From Candidatus Thalassarchaeaceae archaeon (GTDB taxonomy: Archaea > Thermoplasmatota > Poseidoniia > Poseidoniales > Thalassarchaeaceae), in NCBI GenBank assembly GCA_023700255.1, contig JAJPRD010000001.1, forward strand, positions 53,566-117,565: DNA of 64,000 nt, written 5' to 3'. How positions within the stretch are numbered: the first letter of the stretch is position 1; each line of letters begins with the position of its first letter. Below are positions 20,401-62,773 of this stretch, piece by piece. The notes beneath the pieces were generated by a model, which saw only the letters and a program-made list of their open reading frames with translations, searched no databases and was not told the origin of the DNA. The position numbers and the translations under genes were made by a program.

Positions 20401-21414
20401 TTGTCTGATATATCTAGTACTAAATTGGTTATTGAAACCAATAATTTAGTCAAAATGTATGGTCCTCACATTGCTCTCGAAGGCCTTAGTCTTAGCCTTG
20501 AGCCTGGTGCAATTGGGATTCTAGGGCCTAATGGGGCCGGGAAATCTACTTTCTTCAAGTGTATTTTAGGCTTGATTAAAACTACTTCCGGTGATGGTAA
20601 AGTATTGGGTTATGATATCAGAACACAGGGTGATATAATACGTTCAAAAATTGGTTATATGCCCGAATATGATTCTTTAGATCCGGAATTAATTGCAGTC
20701 GATCAGGTCAGATATTCCGGCGAGTTAATTGGTATGAATCCAGCAGAAGCAACTCGAAGAGCACATGAAGTTTTAGAATATGTTGGACTTAAAGAACAGA
20801 GGTATCGTAAAATTGGTACATTCAGCAGCGGAATGAAACAGGCGACTAAACTTGCCTGTGCACTAATTCATGATCCTGAGATTTTGATATGCGATGAACC
20901 CACCAATGGGCTCGATCAACGAGCCAGGGAGTTCATGTTGAATACACTTAGAAATACTGTTAAGGATGGTGGTAGAACAGTATTGATGAGTGGCCATGTA
21001 ATGGATGACATCCAAGAAGTATGTGATAGTATTGTTATGATTCATAAAGGTAAAATTGTAGTTCATAGAAGGATTGATGAGTTAGCCAAACAAGTTGACG
21101 AAGAAATCGAGATTTCAGTATGGGGTGGTTCATCTAAAATGCAAGATTCTTTGGAATCTCGTGGATTAAATGTTCGTCGTCTTGGGAGAGTAATGAGAAT
21201 TAAAGTAGAGTCTGATGATACAATCTCAGCAATCTTACAATCCGCAGTTGAAAGTGATGTACAGGTGAGAAGAATGGGCGTATATGAGCCCGATTTAGAA
21301 GATATATTCTTATTAATCATGGAGAAATTAGGTGCTGAAGTAAAGACAACTTCTGATCTCATGACTCCAGGACATACTGGAATTACCATCCCAGGGGGTG
21401 AAATTCATGAGTGA
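20401..21414 (+). CDS. ABC transporter ATP-binding protein (ABC-2 type system)
   Basis: Walker A GPNGAGKST. Signature FSSGMKQ. Walker B ILICDEP. TTG start. Confidence 0.8.
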   Translation: MSDISSTKLVIETNNLVKMYGPHIALEGLSLSLEPGAIGILGPNGAGKSTFFKCILGLIKTTSGDGKVLGYDIRTQGDIIRSKIGYMPEYDSLDPELIAVDQVRYSGELIGMNPAEATRRAHEVLEYVGLKEQRYRKIGTFSSGMKQATKLACALIHDPEILICDEPTNGLDQRAREFMLNTLRNTVKDGGRTVLMSGHVMDDIQEVCDSIVMIHKGKIVVHRRIDELAKQVDEEIEISVWGGSSKMQDSLESRGLNVRRLGRVMRIKVESDDTISAILQSAVESDVQVRRMGVYEPDLEDIFLLIMEKLGAEVKTTSDLMTPGHTGITIPGGEIHE

Positions 21415-22420
21415 TGATCTGATTGATCTTGAAGGTGGCCAAACTGTTATGGAAGCAGCTTATGGCTCAGATGATGGTGATGATGATTCTATAGCAATAG
21501 TCGCTCAAAAAGAGGCATCTTTAGGTGTGATATTTGAACAAAATTATCGGCCATGGGATGGGAATTTAGGGCCGCGATGGGTTAGGAACTATGCTATATT
21601 TCGGCATCATGTATTTGGTTTATTTACATCTAAGGGTCACAGAAATTATAATCCATTTGTTAGACTAACTATATTAGTTATATTTTTGGGAGCGATTTCT
21701 CCAATTGCTATGTTGTTTTTCGCTTCATTATTTGGTTCCGGACCAGATGGTTTTATCGATAAAATGTGGGGGGTAAATCGCAGTAATCTTTGGGGACAGG
21801 TATTAGGATATTTTCCTCGAAATTTATGTTATTGGCCATTATTAACTGCTCTTGTAGTTGGTGGCATGATCTCTGATGACCGCCGAAATGGTACAAGTTC
21901 AATCTATTTCTCTAGACCTATTACCAGAGTTGATTATACTCTTATGAAATATTTGAGTGTATCAGTAGTTCTAGGTTTTGTAATCATATTTTCTTATATG
22001 TCATATTACACTTTAGCAATAGTGTTCAAAGGAGAAGGTTGGGCCTTTTTAATCGATACTTTACCTATGTTTTTATCTGGTTTATTATGTAGTATACTGT
22101 TGGTGATTACATATACTTCAATCGGTCTAGCTTTATCGAGTATTAGTCAAAGTAGATTTTTTGCTGCAATCTCTTTCTTAAGCATAATTTATGGCACTAA
22201 ATTGACCGCTCTATTAATTGATGCACAATTTGATACATCAATAGTATATATCTTGAGTCCTTATGATTGTCTCGCCCATCTTGGCCAGTGGTTGTTAGGA
22301 TTAGACCTGAATTATTCTCATCCCCTCTCATTATCAGTTATTTCTCTTATATTGATGAACGCAGTTTCTATTATGGTATTAATTTCTAGAGTTACTTCAT
22401 TGGAGGTGACCAGAGAATGA
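21398..22420 (+). CDS. ABC-2 type transporter permease
   Basis: About six TM helices. It lies between two ABC ATPase genes with overlapping stops and starts. Confidence 0.55.
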   Translation: MKFMSDDLIDLEGGQTVMEAAYGSDDGDDDSIAIVAQKEASLGVIFEQNYRPWDGNLGPRWVRNYAIFRHHVFGLFTSKGHRNYNPFVRLTILVIFLGAISPIAMLFFASLFGSGPDGFIDKMWGVNRSNLWGQVLGYFPRNLCYWPLLTALVVGGMISDDRRNGTSSIYFSRPITRVDYTLMKYLSVSVVLGFVIIFSYMSYYTLAIVFKGEGWAFLIDTLPMFLSGLLCSILLVITYTSIGLALSSISQSRFFAAISFLSIIYGTKLTALLIDAQFDTSIVYILSPYDCLAHLGQWLLGLDLNYSHPLSLSVISLILMNAVSIMVLISRVTSLEVTRE

Positions 22421-23358
22421 GTGAAGATAGACCTGTTCCATCAGTTCTTGTAGAAAATGTCTCGAAATGGTATGGCCAAGTTATTGGTATTAATGATGTA
22501 TCTTTAGCAATTGAAGGTGGTGTCACTGGTATTCTTGGACCCAATGGCGCCGGTAAATCCACACTTTTCAAACTATTAATGGGACGAATAAAGCCTAGTC
22601 AAGGAAGTGTTAAGTTATTTGGTATAGATCCATGGACTGACACATCTCCTTATCGAAGGATTGGTTATGTTAGTGAATCAGAAAGACTCTACGATTGGAT
22701 GACTGCTCAAGATTTTGTATCAACTCTTGCCAGATTACATGGTATGACTAGAGATGAAGCGAACGAAAGAGCAGAGCACGTCCTTGATTTTGTAGGTTTA
22801 CATGATGTCAGGCATAAAGAAATAGGGAAGTACAGTAAAGGAATGAGGCAGAGGGTGAAGATAGCTCATGCTTTAGTTCATGATCCTGACTTAATAATTC
22901 TCGATGAACCATTGCATGGTTGTGATCCTTTAGCTAGAACTAGTATAATGAATGTAATTCGAGAACTTGGCCGTCAGGGTAAGACGGTACTCATATCCAG
23001 CCATATTTTAGAAGAAATAGAAAGAATTACTGAACAAATAGTAATTCTCCATAATGGAAGGTTGCTTGCTTTAGGTAATTTATATGCGATTCGTGATTTA
23101 TTAGATAAGCATCCACATCGAATTATGATTACCACAGATGAACCCCGTAAGTTAGCTAGCGCCTTTATTGGAGAAGACCCAATATATGGTGTTAGATTTC
23201 CTGAAGAAGGTAAGTTAGAACTACAAACCAATGATTTATCTGCCGCACACTCAGTCTTGCCTCGAGTTATTGTTAACTCGAATGTTTCAGTTTCAAGAAT
23301 TGATAATCCTGATGACAATTTAGAATCATTGTTAGGTTACTTAATTGGAGGTGAATAA
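22417..23358 (+). CDS. ABC transporter ATP-binding protein (second NBD of the same system)
   Basis: Walker A GPNGAGKST. Signature YSKGMRQR. Walker B LIILDEP. Confidence 0.85.
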   Translation: MSEDRPVPSVLVENVSKWYGQVIGINDVSLAIEGGVTGILGPNGAGKSTLFKLLMGRIKPSQGSVKLFGIDPWTDTSPYRRIGYVSESERLYDWMTAQDFVSTLARLHGMTRDEANERAEHVLDFVGLHDVRHKEIGKYSKGMRQRVKIAHALVHDPDLIILDEPLHGCDPLARTSIMNVIRELGRQGKTVLISSHILEEIERITEQIVILHNGRLLALGNLYAIRDLLDKHPHRIMITTDEPRKLASAFIGEDPIYGVRFPEEGKLELQTNDLSAAHSVLPRVIVNSNVSVSRIDNPDDNLESLLGYLIGGE

Positions 23359-24991
23359 AATGGATAAACAAGGCCGAGGACTTTCTGATACGGTTTGGAC
23401 TCAACTCGATAGAAAGGCGGGTGCTATAGTTGAGTTAACAATTCGTCAACTCCGTAATCGTACGTCTACTTGGGCAGTTTTAGGTGTAGGGGTATTATTG
23501 ATATCTTTGTTGCTTGCATTTTATATTGATGCAATAAGGACTGATTTTGAATCAATAGATAACGATGGAGATAGTGAAGATTGGGATAATGATGGGTTCC
23601 CTTTAGGCCAAGAGCTAATTTATGGTACCAGTGATTATGATAATACCCAATACCCAGGGTCATCGCAGTACCAATATCTTGGCGAAATTGACTGGAATGA
23701 TCAACCACGAACTCACTATGGGAATCATACTTGGAACTATGCTTCTGGATATTTTACACCCACTTGGGTCGATACTGAAGCAGTAAATACATTCGATAGG
23801 TATAGTTGGATAGATTGGAATAATGAAGATGGTATTGCTGATTGCCCCGAAGGAAAACCTTTTGATGATTGGTTCCAGAAAATTTGTGTCTTAGACAATG
23901 GTACTTACGTGGTTAATGGTGTAAGTTTTTCAGCAGAAGGTGAACTGTTTGTCGAACCTGGATACAATTCAGAATGGGGGTATATGACTGATTCATTTTC
24001 TGTAGAAAAACATCCTAAATCAATGTATATAGACGAAGATGATATTGATTGGGATGGTACTTCAGGTTCACATGGATTCGATGATGATGGAGATTGTCTT
24101 AAAGAAGGATATGTAATTGAGGATTTGTCTCAAAATGACAATAACCTAAATGGAATATATTGCGATGTCGAATGGTCTTTTGATGAGAATGGTAACTTAA
24201 TACAAATTAGGGCAGACGACGGTGTCGATGAAGATCCCGATGACTCAAAACATGTAGGTGAATCAAGTCATAGAACATTCATAATTGGCACCGGGAAAAT
24301 TGCTTTTATTATGATTCTTGGACTTTTCTTACCCTTATTTTTAGCCTTAGGTTTAGTACGTGATGAATCTGAGAATGGAACGCTTCACTACTTACTCTCC
24401 AAACCGATACATCGTGGAGAATTTATTCTTTATCGTTTGTTGGGTTATCTAGCAATAGTCGCCTCATATACTGTGATATTAATTTCAATAGTTTCGATAA
24501 TAACTTCTATAATAGGTCCGGGTGATTCTATTATTCGATTAAACGATTTCCCTGTATGGATGGGTATCGCACTTTCTACAATTTTAGTATTAAGTGCATA
24601 TGGCGCTATATTCAATACAGTAGGCTTATTAATGCCAAAATATGGTGTTTATCTCTGTATTATTTATGGTATTTGGGAATTTTTAATGGGATTATTCACT
24701 ATTACTATCCCCACAGCAACAATTCCAATGTTATCTATTTCTCATTGGGCAATTCAAATAATTGATGCTGTTGTTCTAATTGTTTGGAGTGACACTAGTC
24801 TCATTCAACAAAAAGCGGATGCGTTTGATTTGGAGACAGGAATCTCCTTTTTCTGGCACCCTCCAGTCCATACTCTGGATACCGGTAATCCCTTCGTAGC
24901 ACTATTGATAAGCGTAGTATTGATACTACTGGTTACTATAGGTATGATTGCGATAGGGCAGTTAGTTTTCCGAAATAAAGAAATCATGTGA
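23345..24991 (+). CDS. ABC-2 type permease with a large acidic extracellular domain
   Basis: N-terminal TM. A roughly 280-aa extracellular region rich in D/N/G/W, including DNDGDSEDWDNDG. About five C-terminal TM helices. Confidence 0.5.
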   Translation: MEVNKMDKQGRGLSDTVWTQLDRKAGAIVELTIRQLRNRTSTWAVLGVGVLLISLLLAFYIDAIRTDFESIDNDGDSEDWDNDGFPLGQELIYGTSDYDNTQYPGSSQYQYLGEIDWNDQPRTHYGNHTWNYASGYFTPTWVDTEAVNTFDRYSWIDWNNEDGIADCPEGKPFDDWFQKICVLDNGTYVVNGVSFSAEGELFVEPGYNSEWGYMTDSFSVEKHPKSMYIDEDDIDWDGTSGSHGFDDDGDCLKEGYVIEDLSQNDNNLNGIYCDVEWSFDENGNLIQIRADDGVDEDPDDSKHVGESSHRTFIIGTGKIAFIMILGLFLPLFLALGLVRDESENGTLHYLLSKPIHRGEFILYRLLGYLAIVASYTVILISIVSIITSIIGPGDSIIRLNDFPVWMGIALSTILVLSAYGAIFNTVGLLMPKYGVYLCIIYGIWEFLMGLFTITIPTATIPMLSISHWAIQIIDAVVLIVWSDTSLIQQKADAFDLETGISFFWHPPVHTLDTGNPFVALLISVVLILLVTIGMIAIGQLVFRNKEIM

Positions 24992-52940: not shown

Positions 52941-54971
52941 ATGATGAAGCTTAGATTTAGTGCTCTATTTTTATGCACGCTAATGATTGCCTCGGTATTT
53001 GCCGGGTGTCTCGGTGGGGAAGACGATGTAGAAGGTTGTATGGATGCAACTGCTAACAACTACAACGCTGACGCTACAGTAGACGACATGTCATGTACCT
53101 ATGACCCAACTGTGAGTTCTGTAAAAGACTCATTTGCAGCTGGAACCATGGCTTATGATGACGCCTGGTCATCTCTGCAAAGCATGCGTGCTTGTGCCGA
53201 GACCGGATCAAACAACCCATGTGAGATTGTTTCAATGACAATCGGTGACGCATCTACGTTTGATCCTCATGATGCTTATGATTCAGCATCTGGCGACGTT
53301 ATTGAGAATGTTTTCGATACCCTATACAGGTATGAAGGAGACGGATCAGGTAATGCAATCATCGTACCTCGTTTAGCTACTGGTCACACTATTAGTGATG
53401 ATCAACTGACATATACTTTTACTCTACGTGATGATGTATACTTCAGTAATGGTGACCATATGACTGCAGAAGACGTTGTTTATTCATGGGAAAGAGTGAA
53501 TGAAATGGGAAGTCCACTTTCACATGTTTCATGGATTACTGAGCAAAACTTCAATACTTCAGGCCTAACAATGATTGATGACACTCACTTCTCAGTGACT
53601 CTGACTCAACCATATGCTGGTTTCATTTCAACAATTGCTTACACTGTTGGTGCAATTGTAAACAAGGATCTTTGTGAAGCAAATCGTGTAACTACTGCTG
53701 ATGATACTTCTACTGCTGATGTAGACGAGTCATCTGATGACTGGTGCCACACATGGATGGACGAAGCTCCTCTGGGTGCTGGAACTGGTGCTTATATTGT
53801 TGATTCATGGACTCGTGAAACTTCTATTGTTCTCACACCTAACTGGATGTACTGGGAAGATGGCGGATTTAACATCAACCGTTTCACTGAACAGATAGTT
53901 ACTGAAGCTTCTACTCGTCTTCTTGCATTCCAAGATGGTGAGGCTGATTTCGGTGCACTTAATATTGAAGATGAACCTCAATTCTGCGATAACTATGAAG
54001 ATGCACCTAATGTAGCTGGTAAGGATGGATTTGTATGTACTTACAGAGAATCTTTCTCAGTGACTCTATCTGCAATGAACCTTATGCCTAAGGCATTAGA
54101 TGCTGGTGAACAAACCAATAACACTGATGCTAACTCATCTCTAGTTCTAAACTTCGACTGTGATGGCGATGGCACAATGGATTGTAACGTAATGTCACAA
54201 TCTGCAGTTCGTAAGGCTATTGCATATGCTTTCGATTATGATACAGCTCGTCGAGATACTTACAGTGGACAATTGGCTCCAGTATACGGTCCAATCCCTA
54301 ACGGGTTCTTGTACGATGAGACTCAGTCTCAAGTATTCAGCTACGATCTAACTGTTGCTGAAGCAGCTCTTGAAGATGCAGGATTCATCAAGCAATATGA
54401 ATGTTCAAGTCTAACTGTTGCTGGTGAACCAACTGTAGTTCCTGAGGCAGATAGAGATGGTGACGAATGCCGTCTACCAAACATCCTTAGAATCATGGCT
54501 AACGAAGGTAACGATTACCGTATTGCTATGTCTGGACAAATCGCTCAGTCACTAAGTTCAATTGGTGTTGCAACAGATGGTGATGCAAAGCCTTGGGCTG
54601 AGTATCTAACTATGTACTATACAAGTACATTCGAGATTAGATTTAGTGGATGGGCTCCTGATTATCTGGACCCAGATAACTACTGGACTCCATTCGCTGC
54701 AAGTCACGATGCTGGAGGAGATGCATACGGTACAAACTACCATAATGCAGCTCTAGATGAGAATCTAACAGCAGCTCGTATTTCAACAGATGATGCAGAG
54801 CGTACACAACTGTACAGCAATGCATTCGCTCTTTGGACAGAAGATCCGAACATGATTATCATAGGTCAAAGTAATGGTATTAGCGTAAAGCGTACTGATA
54901 TCGTATCTGCACCATGGGCTGCTATAGGTTCAGCTCACTGGTTCGATTACGATAAGTTACCAATAGCTTAA
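52941..54971 (+). CDS. oppA: ABC transporter substrate-binding lipoprotein, oligopeptide/dipeptide family (SBP family 5)
   Basis: Signal peptide plus lipobox FAGC. 676 aa. It is followed by oppBCDF. The gene has a distinctly GC-richer, biased codon usage. Confidence 0.8.
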   Translation: MMKLRFSALFLCTLMIASVFAGCLGGEDDVEGCMDATANNYNADATVDDMSCTYDPTVSSVKDSFAAGTMAYDDAWSSLQSMRACAETGSNNPCEIVSMTIGDASTFDPHDAYDSASGDVIENVFDTLYRYEGDGSGNAIIVPRLATGHTISDDQLTYTFTLRDDVYFSNGDHMTAEDVVYSWERVNEMGSPLSHVSWITEQNFNTSGLTMIDDTHFSVTLTQPYAGFISTIAYTVGAIVNKDLCEANRVTTADDTSTADVDESSDDWCHTWMDEAPLGAGTGAYIVDSWTRETSIVLTPNWMYWEDGGFNINRFTEQIVTEASTRLLAFQDGEADFGALNIEDEPQFCDNYEDAPNVAGKDGFVCTYRESFSVTLSAMNLMPKALDAGEQTNNTDANSSLVLNFDCDGDGTMDCNVMSQSAVRKAIAYAFDYDTARRDTYSGQLAPVYGPIPNGFLYDETQSQVFSYDLTVAEAALEDAGFIKQYECSSLTVAGEPTVVPEADRDGDECRLPNILRIMANEGNDYRIAMSGQIAQSLSSIGVATDGDAKPWAEYLTMYYTSTFEIRFSGWAPDYLDPDNYWTPFAASHDAGGDAYGTNYHNAALDENLTAARISTDDAERTQLYSNAFALWTEDPNMIIIGQSNGISVKRTDIVSAPWAAIGSAHWFDYDKLPIA

Positions 54972-55149: not shown

Positions 55150-56286
55150 ATGAAACTACAGGAATTTATAGTCAGAAGGTTAATTCTTCTCATTCCAGTA
55201 ATTATGGGTGTTTCAATATTCACCTTCGCTATAGCTCAAATAATTCCTGCTGATCCTGCTGCAGCACTATGTGGTGAAAAATGTGGGATTGTAGGCTCTA
55301 ATGGGCTTACTGCTTACGAATCTAATGTCATAAGATTAGGTTTAGACAAACCAGTTTGGCAGCAATATGTCATTTATGTCACTAATCTTCTTGAGGGTGA
55401 TTGGGGTGAATCTGTTACATTCCACCGCCCAGTTATTGAAAAGCTCAGAGATGCGGCTCCTATCACACTTGAGATGTCATTTTTATCTCTTGCAATGGGC
55501 TTTCCAATGGGTATTACTCTTGGTATTTTTAGTGCAGTTTGGCAAGATAAATTATTTGATCAGGCCTCCCGATTTATTGCAATAGCATTTGTCAGTTTAC
55601 CAATATTTTGGTTGGCTATGATGTTTCAATATATACTAGGTACTCAAGTTGGTATATGTGATCCAATAACTCAGGCCTTACCTCTCATACCTGATACTGA
55701 TGGTGGTTGTTTCCCAATATATGGAAGGCATGAACCAACCTACACTTTTCCAGATACTGGGACTGGTTTTCATTTGATTGATAGTTGGATAGTTGAAGAG
55801 CCAACTAAATTCAATCCACAGACTAACCGTTATGAAGTTTCAATGACTCATTGGGATATGTTCATTGATACATTAACACACCTATTTTTACCTTGTTTCA
55901 CTCTAGCCGTAGCTAGTACTGGTGGCCTTCTAAGGTACATGAGGGCCAGTCTTTTAGAAGTTATGAATGAAGACTATGTTAGGACCGCTCGAGCAAAGGG
56001 GATATCTGAAACAAGAGTCATTTTAGTTCATGCTGTAAGAAATGCATTAGTGCCTATCGTCACAATTCTAGGATTTTCTATAGGTGGCGCAATAGGAGGA
56101 GCGGTTCTGACTGAAACAATATTTGCATTCCCAGGGATGGGTAAAACAGCAGTAGATGCCATTGTTTATTTGGATTTCTCAATGATAATGGGTGTGACTT
56201 TAGTCACAGCAATAATTTTCCTTCTTTCTAATTTACTTGTAGATATTTCATATGCAATAGTTGACCCAAGGGTGAGATTAGAATGA
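55150..56286 (+). CDS. oppB: oligopeptide ABC transporter permease (OppB/DppB type)
   Basis: Six TM. Conserved permease motif region (VRTARAKGISETRVILVHAVRNALVPIVT). A roughly 60-aa hydrophilic loop insertion. Confidence 0.8.
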   Translation: MKLQEFIVRRLILLIPVIMGVSIFTFAIAQIIPADPAAALCGEKCGIVGSNGLTAYESNVIRLGLDKPVWQQYVIYVTNLLEGDWGESVTFHRPVIEKLRDAAPITLEMSFLSLAMGFPMGITLGIFSAVWQDKLFDQASRFIAIAFVSLPIFWLAMMFQYILGTQVGICDPITQALPLIPDTDGGCFPIYGRHEPTYTFPDTGTGFHLIDSWIVEEPTKFNPQTNRYEVSMTHWDMFIDTLTHLFLPCFTLAVASTGGLLRYMRASLLEVMNEDYVRTARAKGISETRVILVHAVRNALVPIVTILGFSIGGAIGGAVLTETIFAFPGMGKTAVDAIVYLDFSMIMGVTLVTAIIFLLSNLLVDISYAIVDPRVRLE

Positions 56287-58190
56287 GTGATTTCAAAATT
56301 GATTTCATCATTTATTCTATATTTTTAATTTTTATATTTTTAATTTTTGGAATTATCTCGGATACGCTCCGTGGACATAAATGGTCGAATAGTCTTGAAG
56401 ACCGTAATGAAAGTCTGAATAGGTTCATTCAAGGTTGGAGGCAGCGTATTTACGATATACGAAAAAGTTGGAAAATATTTAGGAAATCAGTACTTGCAAT
56501 CATTGGTTTAATGTTGATAGTTACTGTTTCAACCATCAGTATTTTTGCAGACGATATTGCAGTTGAACACCCTTATAGGAATTTACAAGATACTGAAGAT
56601 CTTTGGTGGATTGATAATGAGCCACGGAGAGAAGCGCCATTTTCTGAGGCTTGTGACTGGCATGAGCAAGGAATAGATATGTTTGGTATAAAAACCAAGG
56701 GTTATTCTCGTTATGTCACTGCAGTATCTGATCCTGTATTTGATGAAAACGGTTCATTGAATCCAAGACCTCTAATTATCATAGAAATAGAGTCTATGGA
56801 AGATGACCTAGGTTATGAATTGAATAATTCTTTGATAGTTATGCATAATGAAACAACATTTTTTGTAACTGATGATGCATTAAATGTCAGTAGTTCAAAA
56901 ATATGGGTGACTTTTGAATTCCAGAATGATGAGATGCACCATTGGTGGTTACCTGATGGACATGATGTCTGCATTATGGGTACTACTAATACAGGGCAAG
57001 ATTTGTTTAGTAAAATTCTTTATGGATCTAGAATTTCTTTGAAAATTGGTATTACAGTCGCATTCTTAACAGTGGCTTTAGGGACTATGATTGGTAGTAT
57101 AAGTGGCTACTATGGCGGAATAATTGATGAAGTAATTATGAGGATAACTGATGTATTTTTTGCAGTCCCTGGTTTAATTTTGGCCATGGCATTTGTTGCA
57201 GCCTTACAGAATACCACTAGTTTGACTATGCCAATGTTCTCAGTAGTTGTTTTGTTGCTATTTTTTGTATTTCTTTCGACACGGAACGTAATTTCGGAAT
57301 TAATTACGGGGGAAGGTACAGATCAAAACACTATTTTCAAAATCAAAGGTAAATTGAAGGAAATTTCTAACCTAGGTGAGGTGGGAAATCCTCTCGGTAT
57401 TTCCATACTCAAGACCTCATTATTTTTACTACGCTACAGGGGGTTCTTTTCGATTATTTTAGCCATGTTCGCTCTGACATTTTGGTCTAATTTTTGGCCT
57501 AATAATCCTGGAATGGAATTAGAGAAATCTTTGATGTTAGTTGCTATTTTCATATTGTGTATAATGGTAATGATTCTCGACCAAAACTTAAACCAAGGCG
57601 TGCCAAGAAAATTGATTTCAGAAAGAGTATCAGGATTATTTGATTTTGGAAACCCCTATCGTTTCTTAGCATTAAGGACAATTCTGATATTTGTATCAGT
57701 CGTTTTGTTGATATTTGTGACAAAATCTAATGAATCTAATTTTGTTGTTATCAAGGATTTTGATAGGCTATGGAAAATTCAGGCTGCACTAATATTGACA
57801 GGTTGGCCGGGTTATGCACGACTAATTCGTGGTCAAGTATTGTATATCAGAGAAATGACTTTTGTTGAAGCTGCTAAATCTGTTGGAGCTCCAGATGGAA
57901 GAATAATGTTTAGGCATATATTACCCAGTGCTTGGGCTCCATTGTTGGTAGCCTTCACTCTTGACGTTGGTGGAACTATATTGTCGGCATCGGGGTTATC
58001 TTTCATAGGGCTTGGTGCTGAACCCGGTACTGCTGAATGGGGTATTCTTGTTTCTGATGGCCGTAGATTCTTTCCAAACTCCTGGTGGTTAGTAACATTC
58101 CCTGGTTTGGCAATACTGTTCACAACACTCGGTTTCAACTTACTCGGAGACGGATTAAGGGATATAGTCGATCCGAAAAATAAGAGGTGA
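56283..58190 (+). CDS. oppC: oligopeptide ABC transporter permease (OppC/DppC type) with a large N-terminal extracellular region and an internal hydrophobic insertion
   Basis: EAA-loop region YARLIRGQVLYIREMTFVEAAKSVGA. C-terminal LGDGLRDIVDPK. It is 635 aa against about 300 typical. Confidence 0.8.
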   Translation: MSDFKIDFIIYSIFLIFIFLIFGIISDTLRGHKWSNSLEDRNESLNRFIQGWRQRIYDIRKSWKIFRKSVLAIIGLMLIVTVSTISIFADDIAVEHPYRNLQDTEDLWWIDNEPRREAPFSEACDWHEQGIDMFGIKTKGYSRYVTAVSDPVFDENGSLNPRPLIIIEIESMEDDLGYELNNSLIVMHNETTFFVTDDALNVSSSKIWVTFEFQNDEMHHWWLPDGHDVCIMGTTNTGQDLFSKILYGSRISLKIGITVAFLTVALGTMIGSISGYYGGIIDEVIMRITDVFFAVPGLILAMAFVAALQNTTSLTMPMFSVVVLLLFFVFLSTRNVISELITGEGTDQNTIFKIKGKLKEISNLGEVGNPLGISILKTSLFLLRYRGFFSIILAMFALTFWSNFWPNNPGMELEKSLMLVAIFILCIMVMILDQNLNQGVPRKLISERVSGLFDFGNPYRFLALRTILIFVSVVLLIFVTKSNESNFVVIKDFDRLWKIQAALILTGWPGYARLIRGQVLYIREMTFVEAAKSVGAPDGRIMFRHILPSAWAPLLVAFTLDVGGTILSASGLSFIGLGAEPGTAEWGILVSDGRRFFPNSWWLVTFPGLAILFTTLGFNLLGDGLRDIVDPKNKR

Positions 58191-58194
58191 TTTT

Positions 58195-60159
58195 ATGTCT
58201 GATGATTCGTTATTAAAGATTCAAAATCTCAAAGTTCATTTTGATACGCTCGAAGGTCCAGTTGAAGCTTTACATGATGTAAACCTTGAAGTTAAAAAAG
58301 GCCAAATAATGGGTGTAGTTGGTGAATCAGGATGTGGTAAATCAGTCACCTCATTAACCAGTATTGGTTTAGCTACTTGCATTGTAGATGAGGGAAGTAT
58401 CAAGTATGACGGTAAAGAAATGATTTTCCATGAAAAAGAAAAGGACCCTTATCTCGTACTTCTAAGTATTATATTACCATATATCGCGGTCTTAATTTCA
58501 TTCCCAATCGGTTTTGTATATCTGATGCCTTTTATGAAAGATCCATTATTCGGCTTTCAAATCATAATGTCAGGTTTTGGATTGATTATTATTTCGATTA
58601 TCATAAAATATTTCATTCATTCAGATTTCAGAGAACATGAGAAATTTATGAGATTCATCAGAGGTAATGAAATAAGTATGATTTTTCAAGAGCCAATGAC
58701 TGCTCTAAATCCTCTATATACTGTTGAGAAGCAGATTTTTGAGGTCATGAAAACACATAAACGTTTAGTTGACCCCAGTTTATCTCAATATAATAGAATC
58801 ATTTCATCATTCAAGGCTCCATTTAGATTCTTGTATAATTGGATTTTATCTGACCGATTTTCAGCAATATTTTTCTCTATTCTTATCTTAACTTATCTGC
58901 TAGTTTCATGTATGGGTCCAAACTCAATTTCTTCATGGGGGACGAGATTTATCGTGATATTCTACGCATCTGCAGAAATATCAATGTCTTGTACTAATTA
59001 TACCGATGAATTAATGTCATATTGCTTTTTATTGATTCCTTTAGGTGCACTCAAATCTTCAATCCAATCTTCGATGACTCGGGGAGATGATTCCAGAAAA
59101 ACTCTGATGTCTATACCATATGTATTTATCATAATAATGTTTATTTTATGGTATGATCAGACGCTTCTACGATCCACCATTATTATAGGTGGTATAATGA
59201 TTTTTATTACGCTAATTTCCTTAATTAAACTGAACTTATGGGAACAAGAATCTGATGTGGTGACTGATATTTCCTCTTTCCTCGCAGCTGTTTTTCACAG
59301 TATTATTCCAGATAATTCAGCAATTAGGTCGATCCCCTTTACATTCACTTTAGCATTGACCTATGCAATTCTTCTGTGGACTCCAAATCAAGTTGTTGGA
59401 ACTGTCTTAGCTTTGATAATGACCGTCTCAATACCTAGTATAATATTGATTGATTTCTTACAATTAGATCCTGCTCATAGAAATCAAGTAATAAAAATCA
59501 TTGAGGATGTTCAGATACCTAATCCTAGTGCAGTCATAACAATGTATCCTCATGAATTATCAGGTGGTATGCGTCAAAGAGTTATGATTGCTATGATGAT
59601 GTCTTGCGAGCCTAAATTACTAATTGCAGATGAACCAACTACAGCTCTTGATGTAACAATACAAGCCCAAATCCTTCACTTGATGCGTGACCTTAGAGAT
59701 CGAAAGGGTACTTCGATAATGCTGATAACTCACGATCTTGGAGTTATTGCTGAACTCTGTGACTCAGTATCGGTGATGTATGCTGGGTCAGTAGTAGAAA
59801 CTGGAACTATTGAAGACATCCTTACGAATCCAAGGATGCCTTATACCATTGGTCTTCTACATAGTATACCTAAAATAGTTCACTCGGATAAACGCGGCGA
59901 ACGCACTAGTCTTCCAATAATCCCTGGGCAGGTTCCAGACCCAAATACTCATTTTGATGGCTGTCGTTTCCATCCTCGATGCCCTTTTGCAGATGACCTT
60001 TGTCGTTCAATTAGGCCTGACATGATTGAAGTTAACGAAGGACACTTTGCCGCCTGCCACTATACTGAACGGACTATTAATTCTAAAGATGTTGAATCCT
60101 CTTTTGATGAATTTTCAAAGGAATTTGAAGGAGTAGGAGGTGAAGTTGTTGTCCGATAA
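58195..60159 (+). CDS. oppD: oligopeptide ABC transporter ATP-binding protein (OppD type) carrying two large hydrophobic in-frame insertions
   Basis: Walker A GESGCGKS. Q-loop MIFQEPMTALNP. Signature LSGGMRQRV. Walker B LLIADEPT. C-terminal oligopeptide-ABC Cys/His tail. There are about 65 aa and about 225 aa of extra hydrophobic sequence between the conserved blocks. Confidence 0.8.
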   Translation: MSDDSLLKIQNLKVHFDTLEGPVEALHDVNLEVKKGQIMGVVGESGCGKSVTSLTSIGLATCIVDEGSIKYDGKEMIFHEKEKDPYLVLLSIILPYIAVLISFPIGFVYLMPFMKDPLFGFQIIMSGFGLIIISIIIKYFIHSDFREHEKFMRFIRGNEISMIFQEPMTALNPLYTVEKQIFEVMKTHKRLVDPSLSQYNRIISSFKAPFRFLYNWILSDRFSAIFFSILILTYLLVSCMGPNSISSWGTRFIVIFYASAEISMSCTNYTDELMSYCFLLIPLGALKSSIQSSMTRGDDSRKTLMSIPYVFIIIMFILWYDQTLLRSTIIIGGIMIFITLISLIKLNLWEQESDVVTDISSFLAAVFHSIIPDNSAIRSIPFTFTLALTYAILLWTPNQVVGTVLALIMTVSIPSIILIDFLQLDPAHRNQVIKIIEDVQIPNPSAVITMYPHELSGGMRQRVMIAMMMSCEPKLLIADEPTTALDVTIQAQILHLMRDLRDRKGTSIMLITHDLGVIAELCDSVSVMYAGSVVETGTIEDILTNPRMPYTIGLLHSIPKIVHSDKRGERTSLPIIPGQVPDPNTHFDGCRFHPRCPFADDLCRSIRPDMIEVNEGHFAACHYTERTINSKDVESSFDEFSKEFEGVGGEVVVR

Positions 60160-61156
60160 AAAAATCTTAATCGAACTAAATAATGTTAAAAAATGGTTCC
60201 CCATAAAATCGGGTCTACTATCTCCCGTGAAAAATTTTGTTCATGCAGTCGATGGAGTCAGTCTTGTTGTAAATAAAGGTGAAACACTGGGTGTAGTTGG
60301 TGAATCTGGTTGTGGGAAGACTACTCTAGGGCGACTTATTCTTAATTTAATACCGATAACTTCCGGCTCAATAATATACGAAGGCGTCGAATTAAAGCGA
60401 ATGAGAAATAGAGATATTAGGAAAAAAATGCAGATTGTATTTCAAGATCCTGGCGGGTCAATGAATCCTCGTATGACAGTGAGATCAATAGTATCTGAAC
60501 CTTTGATTGTAAATGGTCATTCTGATGGGGCTGAAATGACTAAGAAAGTAGGTGATCTGTTAGAATCGGTTGGTCTGAAAAAAAACCATATGACTCGTTT
60601 TCCTCATGAATTCTCAGGTGGGCAAAAACAAAGAGTTGCTTTAGCTAGAGCATTAGCTCTAGAACCAGATTTCATACTTCTAGATGAGCCAACAAGCGCA
60701 TTAGATGTTTCAGTTCAGGCGCAAGTTCTAAACTTATTAGACGAGATTCAGAAACAAAGAGGCTTAACATTCGTTTTCATAACTCATTCTCTAAATGTGG
60801 TACATCATATATCTGATAGAGTTGCTGTTATGTACCTCGGGAAAATCGCCGAGTTAGCTAAAACCGATGACTTATTTGAGCGACCAGCCCACCCGTATAC
60901 TCATGCTCTACTTTCCGCTATTCCTGAGCCAACTGTAGGTCAGGACAGGTCTGAAAGAATAGTGTTGAGTGGAGACGTTCCTAGTCCTGCTGATCCACCT
61001 TCAGGATGTCGTTTTCATACAAGGTGTCCGATAGCAAAACCGGGTACTTGTGATGTTGAAGAACCCGAGTTAATTGAGATAGATACGGGACATAAAGTGG
61101 CATGTCATTTCCCATTGGTGCCAGGGCAAAAATTACCTATGATCAATGAACAATGA
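60140..61156 (+). CDS. oppF: oligopeptide ABC transporter ATP-binding protein (OppF type)
   Basis: Walker A GESGCGKTT. Signature FSGGQKQRV. Walker B ILLDEPTSALD. Standard length with no insertions. Confidence 0.85.
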   Translation: MKLLSDKKILIELNNVKKWFPIKSGLLSPVKNFVHAVDGVSLVVNKGETLGVVGESGCGKTTLGRLILNLIPITSGSIIYEGVELKRMRNRDIRKKMQIVFQDPGGSMNPRMTVRSIVSEPLIVNGHSDGAEMTKKVGDLLESVGLKKNHMTRFPHEFSGGQKQRVALARALALEPDFILLDEPTSALDVSVQAQVLNLLDEIQKQRGLTFVFITHSLNVVHHISDRVAVMYLGKIAELAKTDDLFERPAHPYTHALLSAIPEPTVGQDRSERIVLSGDVPSPADPPSGCRFHTRCPIAKPGTCDVEEPELIEIDTGHKVACHFPLVPGQKLPMINEQ

Positions 61157-61206: not shown

Positions 61207-61560
61207 ATGGATGAGTCCGAAGAAAAATCTCCTTCTCTTGATTTCATAGATAAGAAATCTCAGAGGGAAGCTTCCTTCTGGCGATTGAAAAGGGCGTCTG
61301 ATGACCAACGCCACAAGAGAGTCCAATCAATAGTTGGTCAACAATCTGAAGGCTTGAAACTGACATTAGGTCGTCTATTTTATCTCGTCTTGTGTATACT
61401 CTTCGATGGTCTAGTGCTTACTGAGATTCCAATTCGTTTAGGTAGAACTATGCCTTCTTGGTTATTGTTTGGAATAATACTGGGATATGCAATAATTCTC
61501 CAAAAGCAGTATTATGATGAATGGTTTGATGTCGACTTGACTGGCTTAGATATGAATTAG
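61207..61560 (+). CDS. hypothetical small membrane protein
   Basis: 117 aa. Charged N-terminus, then two hydrophobic helices. Confidence 0.3.
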   Translation: MDESEEKSPSLDFIDKKSQREASFWRLKRASDDQRHKRVQSIVGQQSEGLKLTLGRLFYLVLCILFDGLVLTEIPIRLGRTMPSWLLFGIILGYAIILQKQYYDEWFDVDLTGLDMN

Positions 61561-61762
61561 TTCAGCAGTTTCAATAATCTCTTTTTTCATTTGTTCTTTT
61601 CTCTTCACATTCCAATCTTTTTTTTAATCATTTGTTCATCATTTACTATTTTATTTAATCGTATGTACAATAAATGATTCAATTATTGTATTATAAAAGG
61701 TTAAAGCATCTCTTATGTGTTCAATCGAACATATAATAAACCTCATTATTAGACGGTTGCTT

Positions 61763-62773
61763 ATGGCGGATAAAGCAAAATTGGAGTATATTTGGTTAGA
61801 TGGATATTACCCTACACAGAATATGAGAAGTAAAACTATGGTGAGAAATGATTTCAGTGGTAAATTAGAAGATTGCCCCATTTGGTGTTTCGATGGTAGT
61901 TCTACCAAACAAGCAGAGGGTGGTTCATCTGACTGTCTTTTGAAGCCGGTTGCGATTTTTCCAGATCCGGTTAGGGAAAATGGATATCTAGTTATGAATG
62001 AGGTAATGAATCCCGATTCAACCCCTCATGAATCGAATGGTAGGGCAACAATTGATGATGATGATAATGATTTTTGGTTTGGTTTTGAACAAGAATATTT
62101 CATTATGGATGTCGATACACAATTGCCTTTAGGTTTTCCATTAGGTGGCTATCCTGGACCTCAAGGACTCTACTATTGTTCAGTAGGTGGGAAAAATACA
62201 CACGGTCGATCATTTGTTGAGGAACATGCTGATTTATGTATTGGTGCAGGTATTAATTTCGAAGGTATCAATCAGGAAGTGGCATGCGGTCAATGGGAAT
62301 TTCAGTTATTTGCTAAAGGTGCTAAGAAAGCAGGTGATGAGTTATGGATTGCTAGATACTTACTAGATAGGTTGACTGAAAGTTATGGATATTATATTGA
62401 ATATCATCCTAAACCTGTCCCCGGTGATTGGAATGGTTCAGGTATGCATGCTAACTTTTCAGATACTCAATTGCGCGAAAGCGGTGATGAGAAAGTTTTC
62501 AATAATGTATGTGAGGCGTTTGGAAAGAATATCAAAAGGCATATGGATGTCTATGGGGCACATAATGAATTGCGTTTAACAGGACTCCATGAAACTCAAT
62601 CCATTCACTCATTTTCATATGGTGTATCTGATAGAGGGGCATCAATTCGAATACCTATTGGTACAGTGGAAGATGGTTGGAAAGGTAGGCTAGAGGATAG
62701 AAGGCCAGCTTCCAATGCTGATCCCTACAAAATCGCATCTGTAATTGTTAAAACAACTAAATCCACTTATTGA
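61763..62773 (+). CDS. glnII: glutamine synthetase type II (eukaryote-like GS)
   Basis: YIWLDG, CFDGSSTKQAEGGSSD and FGFEQEYF match the GSII N- and catalytic domains. About 337 aa from the ATG at 61763; the ORF track begins 48 nt upstream. Confidence 0.75.
   Translation: MADKAKLEYIWLDGYYPTQNMRSKTMVRNDFSGKLEDCPIWCFDGSSTKQAEGGSSDCLLKPVAIFPDPVRENGYLVMNEVMNPDSTPHESNGRATIDDDDNDFWFGFEQEYFIMDVDTQLPLGFPLGGYPGPQGLYYCSVGGKNTHGRSFVEEHADLCIGAGINFEGINQEVACGQWEFQLFAKGAKKAGDELWIARYLLDRLTESYGYYIEYHPKPVPGDWNGSGMHANFSDTQLRESGDEKVFNNVCEAFGKNIKRHMDVYGAHNELRLTGLHETQSIHSFSYGVSDRGASIRIPIGTVEDGWKGRLEDRRPASNADPYKIASVIVKTTKSTY

Follow-up and report, generated by a model that had tools for sequence, protein, structure and literature searches.

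Two predicted membrane-helix modules nested in the OppD ATPase of a Poseidoniales oligopeptide importer

The opp operon and the architecture of OppD

The window analysed here, a stretch of 64,000 nucleotides (nt) from contig JAJPRD010000001.1 of a Candidatus Thalassarchaeaceae archaeon, harbours on its + strand a tightly packed operon of ATP-binding cassette (ABC) transporter genes in the order oppA-B-C-D-F (Table 1). The fourth gene, oppD, is a single uninterrupted open reading frame (ORF) that codes for an ATPase in which all the sequence blocks of the family are accompanied by two long hydrophobic inserts, both internal to the nucleotide-binding domain (NBD). An oligopeptide transporter is found in most genomes of Marine Group II (MGII) archaea and is the sole such transporter in MGIIa (Tully 2019, PMC6336850); presumably, it is the system encoded by the opp operon of the window.

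The boundaries of the inserts were defined by alignment to solved structures. Specifically, Mycobacterium tuberculosis OppD (8j5q_D) matches the protein in three blocks, namely residues 5-77 (reference 3-76), 152-192 (reference 83-123), and 427-627 (reference 127-323; 175 bits), and the two stretches that have no counterpart in the reference therefore delimit insert 1 (residues 78-151) and insert 2 (residues 193-426). Escherichia coli DppD places the inserts identically, with residues 152-192 corresponding to DppD 80-120, and M. tuberculosis OppD and E. coli DppD/OppD are the best sequence matches of the protein in the PDB. The alignment to solved DppD/OppD that the original prediction had proposed thus located both inserts precisely; the interval that it had marked (58440-59460) covers both of them, and its estimates of ~65 amino acids (aa) with two hydrophobic helices after Walker A and ~225 aa with 6-8 helices before the LSGG signature come close to the measured ~71-74 aa with two hydrophobic segments and ~233 aa with five to six. 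Insert 1 separates the strand after Walker A from the helix/strand that runs into the Q-loop. Insert 2 is located in the helical subdomain; it starts ~10 residues past E183, where the helix directed towards the membrane domain ends.

The effect on motif spacing is large. Walker A and the Q-loop are 120 aa apart in OppD, versus 46 in the OppF of the window and 48-60 (median 49) in bacterial NBDs (n=148), and the distance from the Q-loop to LSGG is 292 aa, versus 58 in OppF and a median of 59 in the same bacterial set. This baseline consists of 148 Opp-type NBDs from 80 bacterial loci that match the peptide patterns MIFQEPM / NPLYTVEK, which occur in ordinary bacterial OppD as well, and the scan returned these 80 bacterial loci and no Poseidoniales. 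Its lone spacing outlier is a fused double NBD with MSGG. The inserts are absent from all 148 bacterial NBDs and from the three other NBDs of the window, including OppF, whose contiguous ABC_tran domain and ordinary spacing agree with the earlier statement that this partner has neither insertion. The other two internal controls are the uninterrupted ABC-2-type ATPases at 20401-21414 and 22417-23358, which belong to two consecutive ATPase-permease pairs (20401-24991, + strand; 337 aa with 340 aa, and 313 aa with 548 aa).

Table 1. Features of the opp locus. Coordinates refer to the window, except for the homologues of the small protein, which are given on their own loci.
Feature	Position	Strand	Description
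oppA	52941..54971	+	676 aa, family-5 substrate-binding protein; Pfam SBP_bac_5, 7.1e-61
oppB	55150..56286	+	378 aa, essentially canonical permease with 6 transmembrane (TM) helices; Pfam BPD_transp_1
oppC	56283..58190	+	635-aa permease; Pfam BPD_transp_1 split into two stretches
oppC, first conserved insert	56592..56945	+	aa ~104-221, ~118 aa; contains Cys
oppC, second conserved insert	57204..57782	+	aa ~308-500, ~190 aa; about four hydrophobic helices
oppD	58195..60159	+	654 aa; Pfam ABC_tran (2.2e-23) split into two stretches, oligo_HPY (1.5e-18)
oppD, NBD N-terminal piece	58195..58425	+	aa 1-77: beta strands, F16, Walker A; equivalent to 8j5q_D 3-76
oppD, insert 1	58426..58647	+	aa 78-151, ~71-74 aa; predicted two-helix membrane hairpin; absent from 8j5q_D
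oppD, Q-loop strand and first helix of the helical subdomain	58648..58770	+	aa 152-192, with Q165 and E183
oppD, insert 2	58771..59472	+	aa 193-426, ~233 aa; absent from 8j5q_D
oppD, NBD C-terminal piece	59473..59829	+	aa 427-545: signature, Walker B, D-loop, H-loop
oppD, oligo_HPY tail	59830..60075	+	Pfam PF08352; four Cys (C590, C596, C603, C621)
oppF	60140..61156	+	338 aa; contiguous ABC_tran (38-186) and oligo_HPY; ordinary partner ATPase without inserts
Small ORF	61207..61560	+	117 aa; two hydrophobic helices; candidate extra subunit
Homologues of the small protein	L081 8190-8561; L084 9096-9449; L088 9698-10087; L090 2059-2427		

Around the inserts, the ATPase core is intact. The motifs follow one another in the canonical order, as first noted from the sequence: Walker A (GESGCGKS, 43-50), Q165, the signature (LSGGMRQR, 455-462), Walker B (LLIADE, 475-480), the D-loop (ALD, 484-486), and H513. 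They align with those of solved OppD, and F16, Walker A, Q165, E183, the signature, Walker B with E480, the D-loop, H513, and the four Cys do not vary among 44 homologues. Both Pfam domains score well above their cut-offs (ABC_tran, PF00005, 83.8 bits versus 25; oligo_HPY, PF08352, 67.4 versus 27.1), and the spacing of the Cys residues in the tail (6/7/18) is the same as that of C284/290/297/315 of E. coli DppD, which are the ligands of a [4Fe-4S] cluster (PMC12136057). Judged from its sequence, OppD is a catalytically competent ABC ATPase of the Opp/Dpp type.

The surface for docking to the permeases is likewise recognisable. E. coli DppD sits beneath DppB, and DppD E114 forms a salt bridge with DppB K243 (PMC12136057). 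By alignment, the equivalent residues are E183 of OppD and K283 of OppB, which aligns end to end with 8z1v_A, and since this pair is kept, OppD probably docks on OppB in the usual way, through the coupling-helix contact. The protein therefore displays the oligo_HPY tail with four Cys, which bind a [4Fe-4S] cluster in E. coli DppD/F, the A-B-C-D-F operon, and the coupling-helix contact residues that characterise subunit D of the Opp/Dpp systems (TC 3.A.1.5), and departs from them in its build: in place of a contiguous domain of ~320-340 aa without membrane segments, it has 654 aa and two hydrophobic inserts. Its scores against the curated NCBIfam models are below the cut-offs (305.7 versus 575 bits for OppD; 291.5 versus 541 for DppD).

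Conservation and authenticity of the inserts

The nested inserts recur among the best relatives of the protein. The closest database protein (98% identity), annotated from a metagenome-assembled genome (MAG) of Candidatus Poseidoniales, is present on 26 contigs, over 130 contigs, the longest of 278 kb, carry a form with 80% identity, and the complete sequences among the 120 best relatives are all 539-662 aa long and all carry both inserts. The relatives with a name are assigned to Poseidoniales, Thalassarchaeum, Thalassarchaeaceae, or Euryarchaeota and encompass both families of Poseidoniales. Furthermore, five clades share the layout of the locus, with a long OppC, a long OppD, a normal OppF, and, where the contig reaches it, a small protein.

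Several results bear on whether the inserts are real protein. The length differences among the homologues are all in frame, and in the comparison of the window with the 80%-identical orthologue (synonymous divergence, dS, about 0.9-1.1), the ratio of non-synonymous to synonymous substitutions (dN/dS) is 0.01-0.04 in the core, 0.10 in insert 1, and 0.25 in insert 2. Such values indicate that both inserts are translated and under purifying selection, and exclude an intron. Conserved Pro, Trp, and Asp positions are found within the inserts, and on the opposite strand across them, no ORF of at least 60 aa is present. The possibility that the architecture is an artefact, namely a chimeric assembly, a frameshifted annotation, or an intein or archaeal intron that is removed, is suggested by base composition: the G+C content falls to 0.31-0.33 between 58500 and 59500, versus 0.40-0.42 in the flanking ATPase-coding parts, and the GC skew changes sign. 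This dip is, however, what is expected of a hydrophobic sequence rich in Ile, Phe, Leu, Tyr, and Asn in an AT-rich genome. Moreover, hundreds of marine contigs assembled in independent projects (ENA, JGI, Tara, NCBI MAGs), a number of them exceeding 100 kb, share this architecture, which excludes misassembly and disposes of the chimeric assembly that had been named as a possible refutation; the in-frame length differences and mostly synonymous substitutions are incompatible with an untranslated intron. As for an intein, OppD has no Hint/intein match in Pfam and no C/S...HN-C/S/T junction, the residues at the boundaries being F78-H79 / K150-F151 and V192-D193 / P426-A427, in line with the earlier observation that intein blocks are missing. 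Intron, intein, and misassembly were rejected on these grounds, and we regard an artefact of any kind as extremely improbable.

Where the inserts come from was addressed by profile searches. In Pfam, insert 2 matches no family at E<=1, and insert 1 gives chance-level TM matches only. When the profile of insert 2 was compared with 1.84 billion representative proteins, it retrieved 13 matches, all of them OppD of this kind or fragments thereof, with no free-standing membrane protein among them, and the matches that carry a name belong to Poseidoniales or Thalassarchaeaceae. The OppD with nested inserts is a lineage-specific invention of MGII archaea (Poseidoniales). Literature searches, with thin coverage of subscription journals, turned up no account of an ABC ATPase with membrane helices in its fold, nor of such a feature in MGII, which accords with the first impression that the architecture had not been described.

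Predicted membrane topology and the enlarged transporter

The case for membrane hairpins starts from hydropathy. With Kyte-Doolittle and Hessa-type windows, insert 1 shows two strong segments (about 87-105 and 119-137) and insert 2 shows five (222-240, 302-320, 328-346, 376-394, and 401-419), to which a weaker one at ~278-296 can be added; in the alignment, this one coincides with a helix that all relatives conserve. Insert 1 is predicted to form two helices (~85-110 and ~117-142) joined by a short outside loop (MPFMKDPLFG) and followed by a K/R-rich return linker. Insert 2 begins with helices (198-219) that look amphipathic rather than membrane-spanning, and continues with six helices predicted to cross the membrane: a (221-243), b (~278-296), e (302-322), f (325-349), c (376-397), and d (399-423). 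Its middle is variable and its ends are conserved, with P209, P381, L394-W395-x-P397, P414, and L424-D425-P426.

The number of helices matters, as an even number in each module lets the chain leave and re-enter the cytoplasm so that the ATPase fold still closes. Two hydrophobic peaks are seen in insert 1 of all 44 homologues. In insert 2, most relatives (MGIIb-like) have four peaks and most members of the clade of the window have six, and by a crude threshold the count is even, 4 or 6, in 40 of the 44. A relative from the same clade as the window (P0051, 577 aa) is devoid of the middle part of insert 2 and shows four peaks instead of six. The distribution of charges conforms to this topology. 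With the loops assigned alternately to the inside and the outside, beginning in the cytoplasm, the density of Lys and Arg in insert 1 is 22.7 per 100 aa on the inside and 2.1 on the outside, and the corresponding figures in insert 2 are 12.4 and 2.7, a 5-10 fold excess that matches the positive-inside pattern expected of real hairpins returning to the cytoplasm. Hence the features of a helical-hairpin membrane protein, that is, helices of at least ~19 residues, an even number of them per insert, and positive charges inside, are all found in the prediction.

Structure modelling points in the same direction. A first AlphaFold (AF2) run with 44 close homologues gave a predicted local distance difference test (pLDDT) score of 53.8, and a second with 54 sequences, which included more diverse members and the three other NBDs of the window, gave a mean pLDDT of 67.1. 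Long helices are predicted, an outcome in favour of the original prediction, which had proposed such modelling as a check: those of insert 1 (85-110 and 117-141) reach pLDDT 82-91 and are among the highest-confidence parts of the model, and in insert 2 the values are about 70-84 for helices 198-239 and about 50-85 for helices 379-422. The best PDB matches of the model in Foldseek are E. coli OppD/DppD (template modelling score, TM-score, 0.62-0.65 normalised to the target); this search retrieved NBDs only, and the match spans the ATPase part only.

A different reading of the same segments is that the inserts form a hydrophobic or amphipathic domain that does not span the membrane, being cytoplasmic or peripheral and, for instance, resting on the surface of the bilayer or buried against loops of OppB/OppC in the cytoplasm. 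The topology evidence is all indirect, the region 198-219 does not look membrane-spanning, weaker segments at about 250-266 and 356-372 are ambiguous, and the AF2 confidence in the middle of insert 2 is low. A domain of this type is nevertheless difficult to reconcile with at least seven segments of 19-26 residues whose mean Kyte-Doolittle value is 2.3-2.6 or whose Hessa-type values sum to about zero or less, with short connecting loops that are uncharged or acidic, as is typical of outside loops, and with the pairing of helices and the positive-inside bias, unexpected for a soluble domain. On this evidence, a non-spanning domain seems improbable.

Alongside OppD, other components of the transporter are enlarged. 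OppC, which is twice the usual length of a permease, aligns with E. coli DppC in three blocks (residues 59-103 with 19-63, 222-307 with 71-156, and 501-634 with 166-299) and carries three additions: an extra N-terminal hydrophobic segment, seen in this clade only, a conserved Cys-containing insert on the outside after TM1, and a helix-bearing insert in the outside TM3-TM4 loop (Table 1), the latter two being kept in five Poseidoniales clades. Direct comparison of the OppC insert with the OppD insert revealed no similarity. The B permease is likewise enlarged in the Thalassarchaeum-type family, as exemplified by the 466-aa OppB of an MGIIb operon of this type (L081, 2246-3646), versus 378 aa in the window. 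Moreover, every locus that reaches past oppF encodes a small protein of 117-129 aa 3' of it, with a charged N-terminus, two hydrophobic helices, a conserved CILFDGLVLTEIP motif, and an invariant CILFDGL.L.E; it is 47-77% identical in the syntenic loci L081, L084, and L088, occurs also in L090, and has no match in Pfam or NCBIfam. This protein may represent a sixth transporter subunit.

Taken together, these data make it probable, with good confidence on our part, that the operon encodes a lineage-specific enlarged peptide importer whose OppD is an integral membrane protein with two helical modules nested in the NBD fold. Insert 1 would be a two-helix membrane hairpin, and insert 2 would have a core of four helices, expanded to about six in the clade of the window, so that ~8 helices of OppD would stand beside the OppB/OppC core. 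If the ~4 helices added to OppC and the two of the small protein are counted as well, the membrane part of the transporter would be about twice as large. The likeliest role of the inserts would be to tether the ATPase permanently and to act as a scaffold for the complex, and insert 2 may add a second, covalent link between the ATPase and the membrane, since it hangs on the subdomain that rotates in the ATP cycle. The original prediction had proposed even-numbered hairpins that leave the NBD cytoplasmic and an NBD that is possibly anchored in the membrane; both proposals find support in the hydropathy, the even counts, and the positive-inside bias, with membrane insertion being a prediction.

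Several points weigh against this interpretation or limit its detail. Membrane insertion is predicted from hydropathy on Kyte-Doolittle and Hessa-type scales, charge bias, and the AF2 helices. The homologues are related, and consequently the count of 44 out of 44 and the charge-bias counts are not independent; by the crude threshold, the peak count of insert 2 is odd in 4 of the 44. Conservation is poor in the middle of insert 2 (residues 243-383), where pLDDT is below 50, and OppD may have six or eight helices. The helical periodicity of conservation, a sign of specific helix packing, is weak (p=0.005 for one of five helices). The AF2 model does not establish that the insert 1 site can geometrically reach the membrane, and the roles as tether, scaffold, and second coupling are ones that we infer.

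The inserts could also be embedded in the membrane and yet be neutral passengers, the outcome of an ancient accident at permissive loops that is kept since removal would misfold the protein. Both sites are loops at which the ABC fold tolerates insertions, the family models of mollicute OppD (NF043079) and OppF (NF043078) have ~225 and ~330 extra positions, respectively, at the site of insert 1, insert 2 (130-242 aa among the homologues) varies far more than the core does, both in length and in sequence, and no homologue of the inserts is detectable elsewhere. A mere passenger is, however, hardly expected to show dN/dS of 0.10-0.25 at dS about 1, to be kept at both sites by every clade sampled from a lineage of the rank of order, and to hold invariant Pro, Trp, and Asp within its helices; furthermore, the parallel gain of helices by OppC and the syntenic small membrane protein suggest a co-adapted complex. 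We judge the chance of neutral passengers to be small.

Within the preferred reading of a membrane-integral OppD, a more ambitious version can be considered, in which the helices nested in OppD, the four that OppC has gained, and the small two-helix protein constitute an additional working membrane module and the rotation of the helical subdomain is transmitted covalently as well as via the coupling helix. This version is tentative and, in our opinion, rather doubtful; if true, it would represent a mode of ATPase-membrane coupling or membrane regulation that is not known in any ABC importer, operating in the main peptide uptake system of abundant surface-ocean archaea.

Lastly, some features of the neighbourhood were observed. 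OppA opens with a lipobox-like FAGCLGG, and a short NYNADATVDDMSC module flanked by Cys lies between it and the binding domain. Downstream (61715-62773, + strand), a gene codes for a short glutamine synthetase of 352 aa whose best match is type II GlnII (375.9 bits, where the curated cut-off is 500), a type better known from eukaryotes and some bacteria; this gene is syntenic with the opp operon in L084.

Comparison with known systems

ABC importers are described as permeases with soluble ATPases that touch the membrane domain via the coupling helix alone. An OppD with about eight predicted helices in two loops of its catalytic fold breaks this rule while keeping every catalytic motif, and represents a natural test case for how much freedom an NBD needs, for the insertion and folding of a chain of alternating cytoplasmic and hairpin pieces, and for the relation between covalent links and coupling. 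Automatic annotation labels the genes as ordinary OppD and OppC, and the architecture is consequently invisible in metabolic reconstructions. If the opp operon is the transporter described by Tully (2019), its unusual build bears on peptide uptake by abundant protein-degrading archaea.

The closest known systems are DppD/OppD of E. coli and OppD/DppD of M. tuberculosis, represented by cryo-electron microscopy structures (8z1v, 8z21, 8j5q, 8wd9), which have the same motifs, the same tail with the 6/7/18 Cys spacing, and the same A-B-C-D-F logic, and share with the OppD of the window the glutamate that bonds to the coupling helix of the B permease. The difference lies in the build of the ATPase: the known proteins are soluble or peripheral and ~320-340 aa long, or NBD-NBD fusions in M. 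tuberculosis, whereas the OppD of the window has an additional 71 and 233 aa nested in the fold.

A possible precedent exists in mollicutes (Mycoplasma mycoides/JCVI-syn), whose OppD (NF043079, 561 positions) and OppF (NF043078, 649 positions) have a large insertion at the insert 1 site, which identifies this loop as a known insertion hot spot in Opp ATPases and moderates the novelty of the nested-insert OppD. Specifically, residues 6-75 of the window protein map to model positions 1-72, and the Q-loop segment maps to 298-339 of the OppD model and 402-435 of the OppF model. These insertions are features of the family models, and their likeness to insert 1 is one of site. Unlike the archaeal protein, the mollicute ATPases are bacterial and lack an insertion at the insert 2 site (model 339 to 344), and the OppD of the window scores 276.3 bits against NF043079, versus a cut-off of 740.

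An ATPase and membrane helices coexist on one chain in Sav1866/MsbA, ABCG2, and MacB, in which the NBD is permanently at the membrane. In those proteins, a terminal membrane domain forms the translocation path, whereas the helices of OppD are placed at two internal loops of the NBD and match no recognised ABC membrane-domain family (ABC_membrane, ABC2_membrane, FtsX, BPD_transp), and hence OppD is not a fused half-transporter composed of a transmembrane domain and an NBD. Moreover, OppD, unlike the fused transporters, coexists with the separate canonical permeases OppB and OppC.

The ABC fold is also known to tolerate large insertions, such as the coiled coils of Rad50/SMC, the domains of UvrA, the arm of ABCF proteins, and the insertion in NBD1 of CFTR. 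Some of these nested insertions are placed, like insert 2, after the Q-loop and ahead of the signature. All of them are soluble, in the form of coiled coils, modules that bind DNA or ribosomes, or disordered loops, whereas those of the OppD of the window are predicted to be membrane helices.

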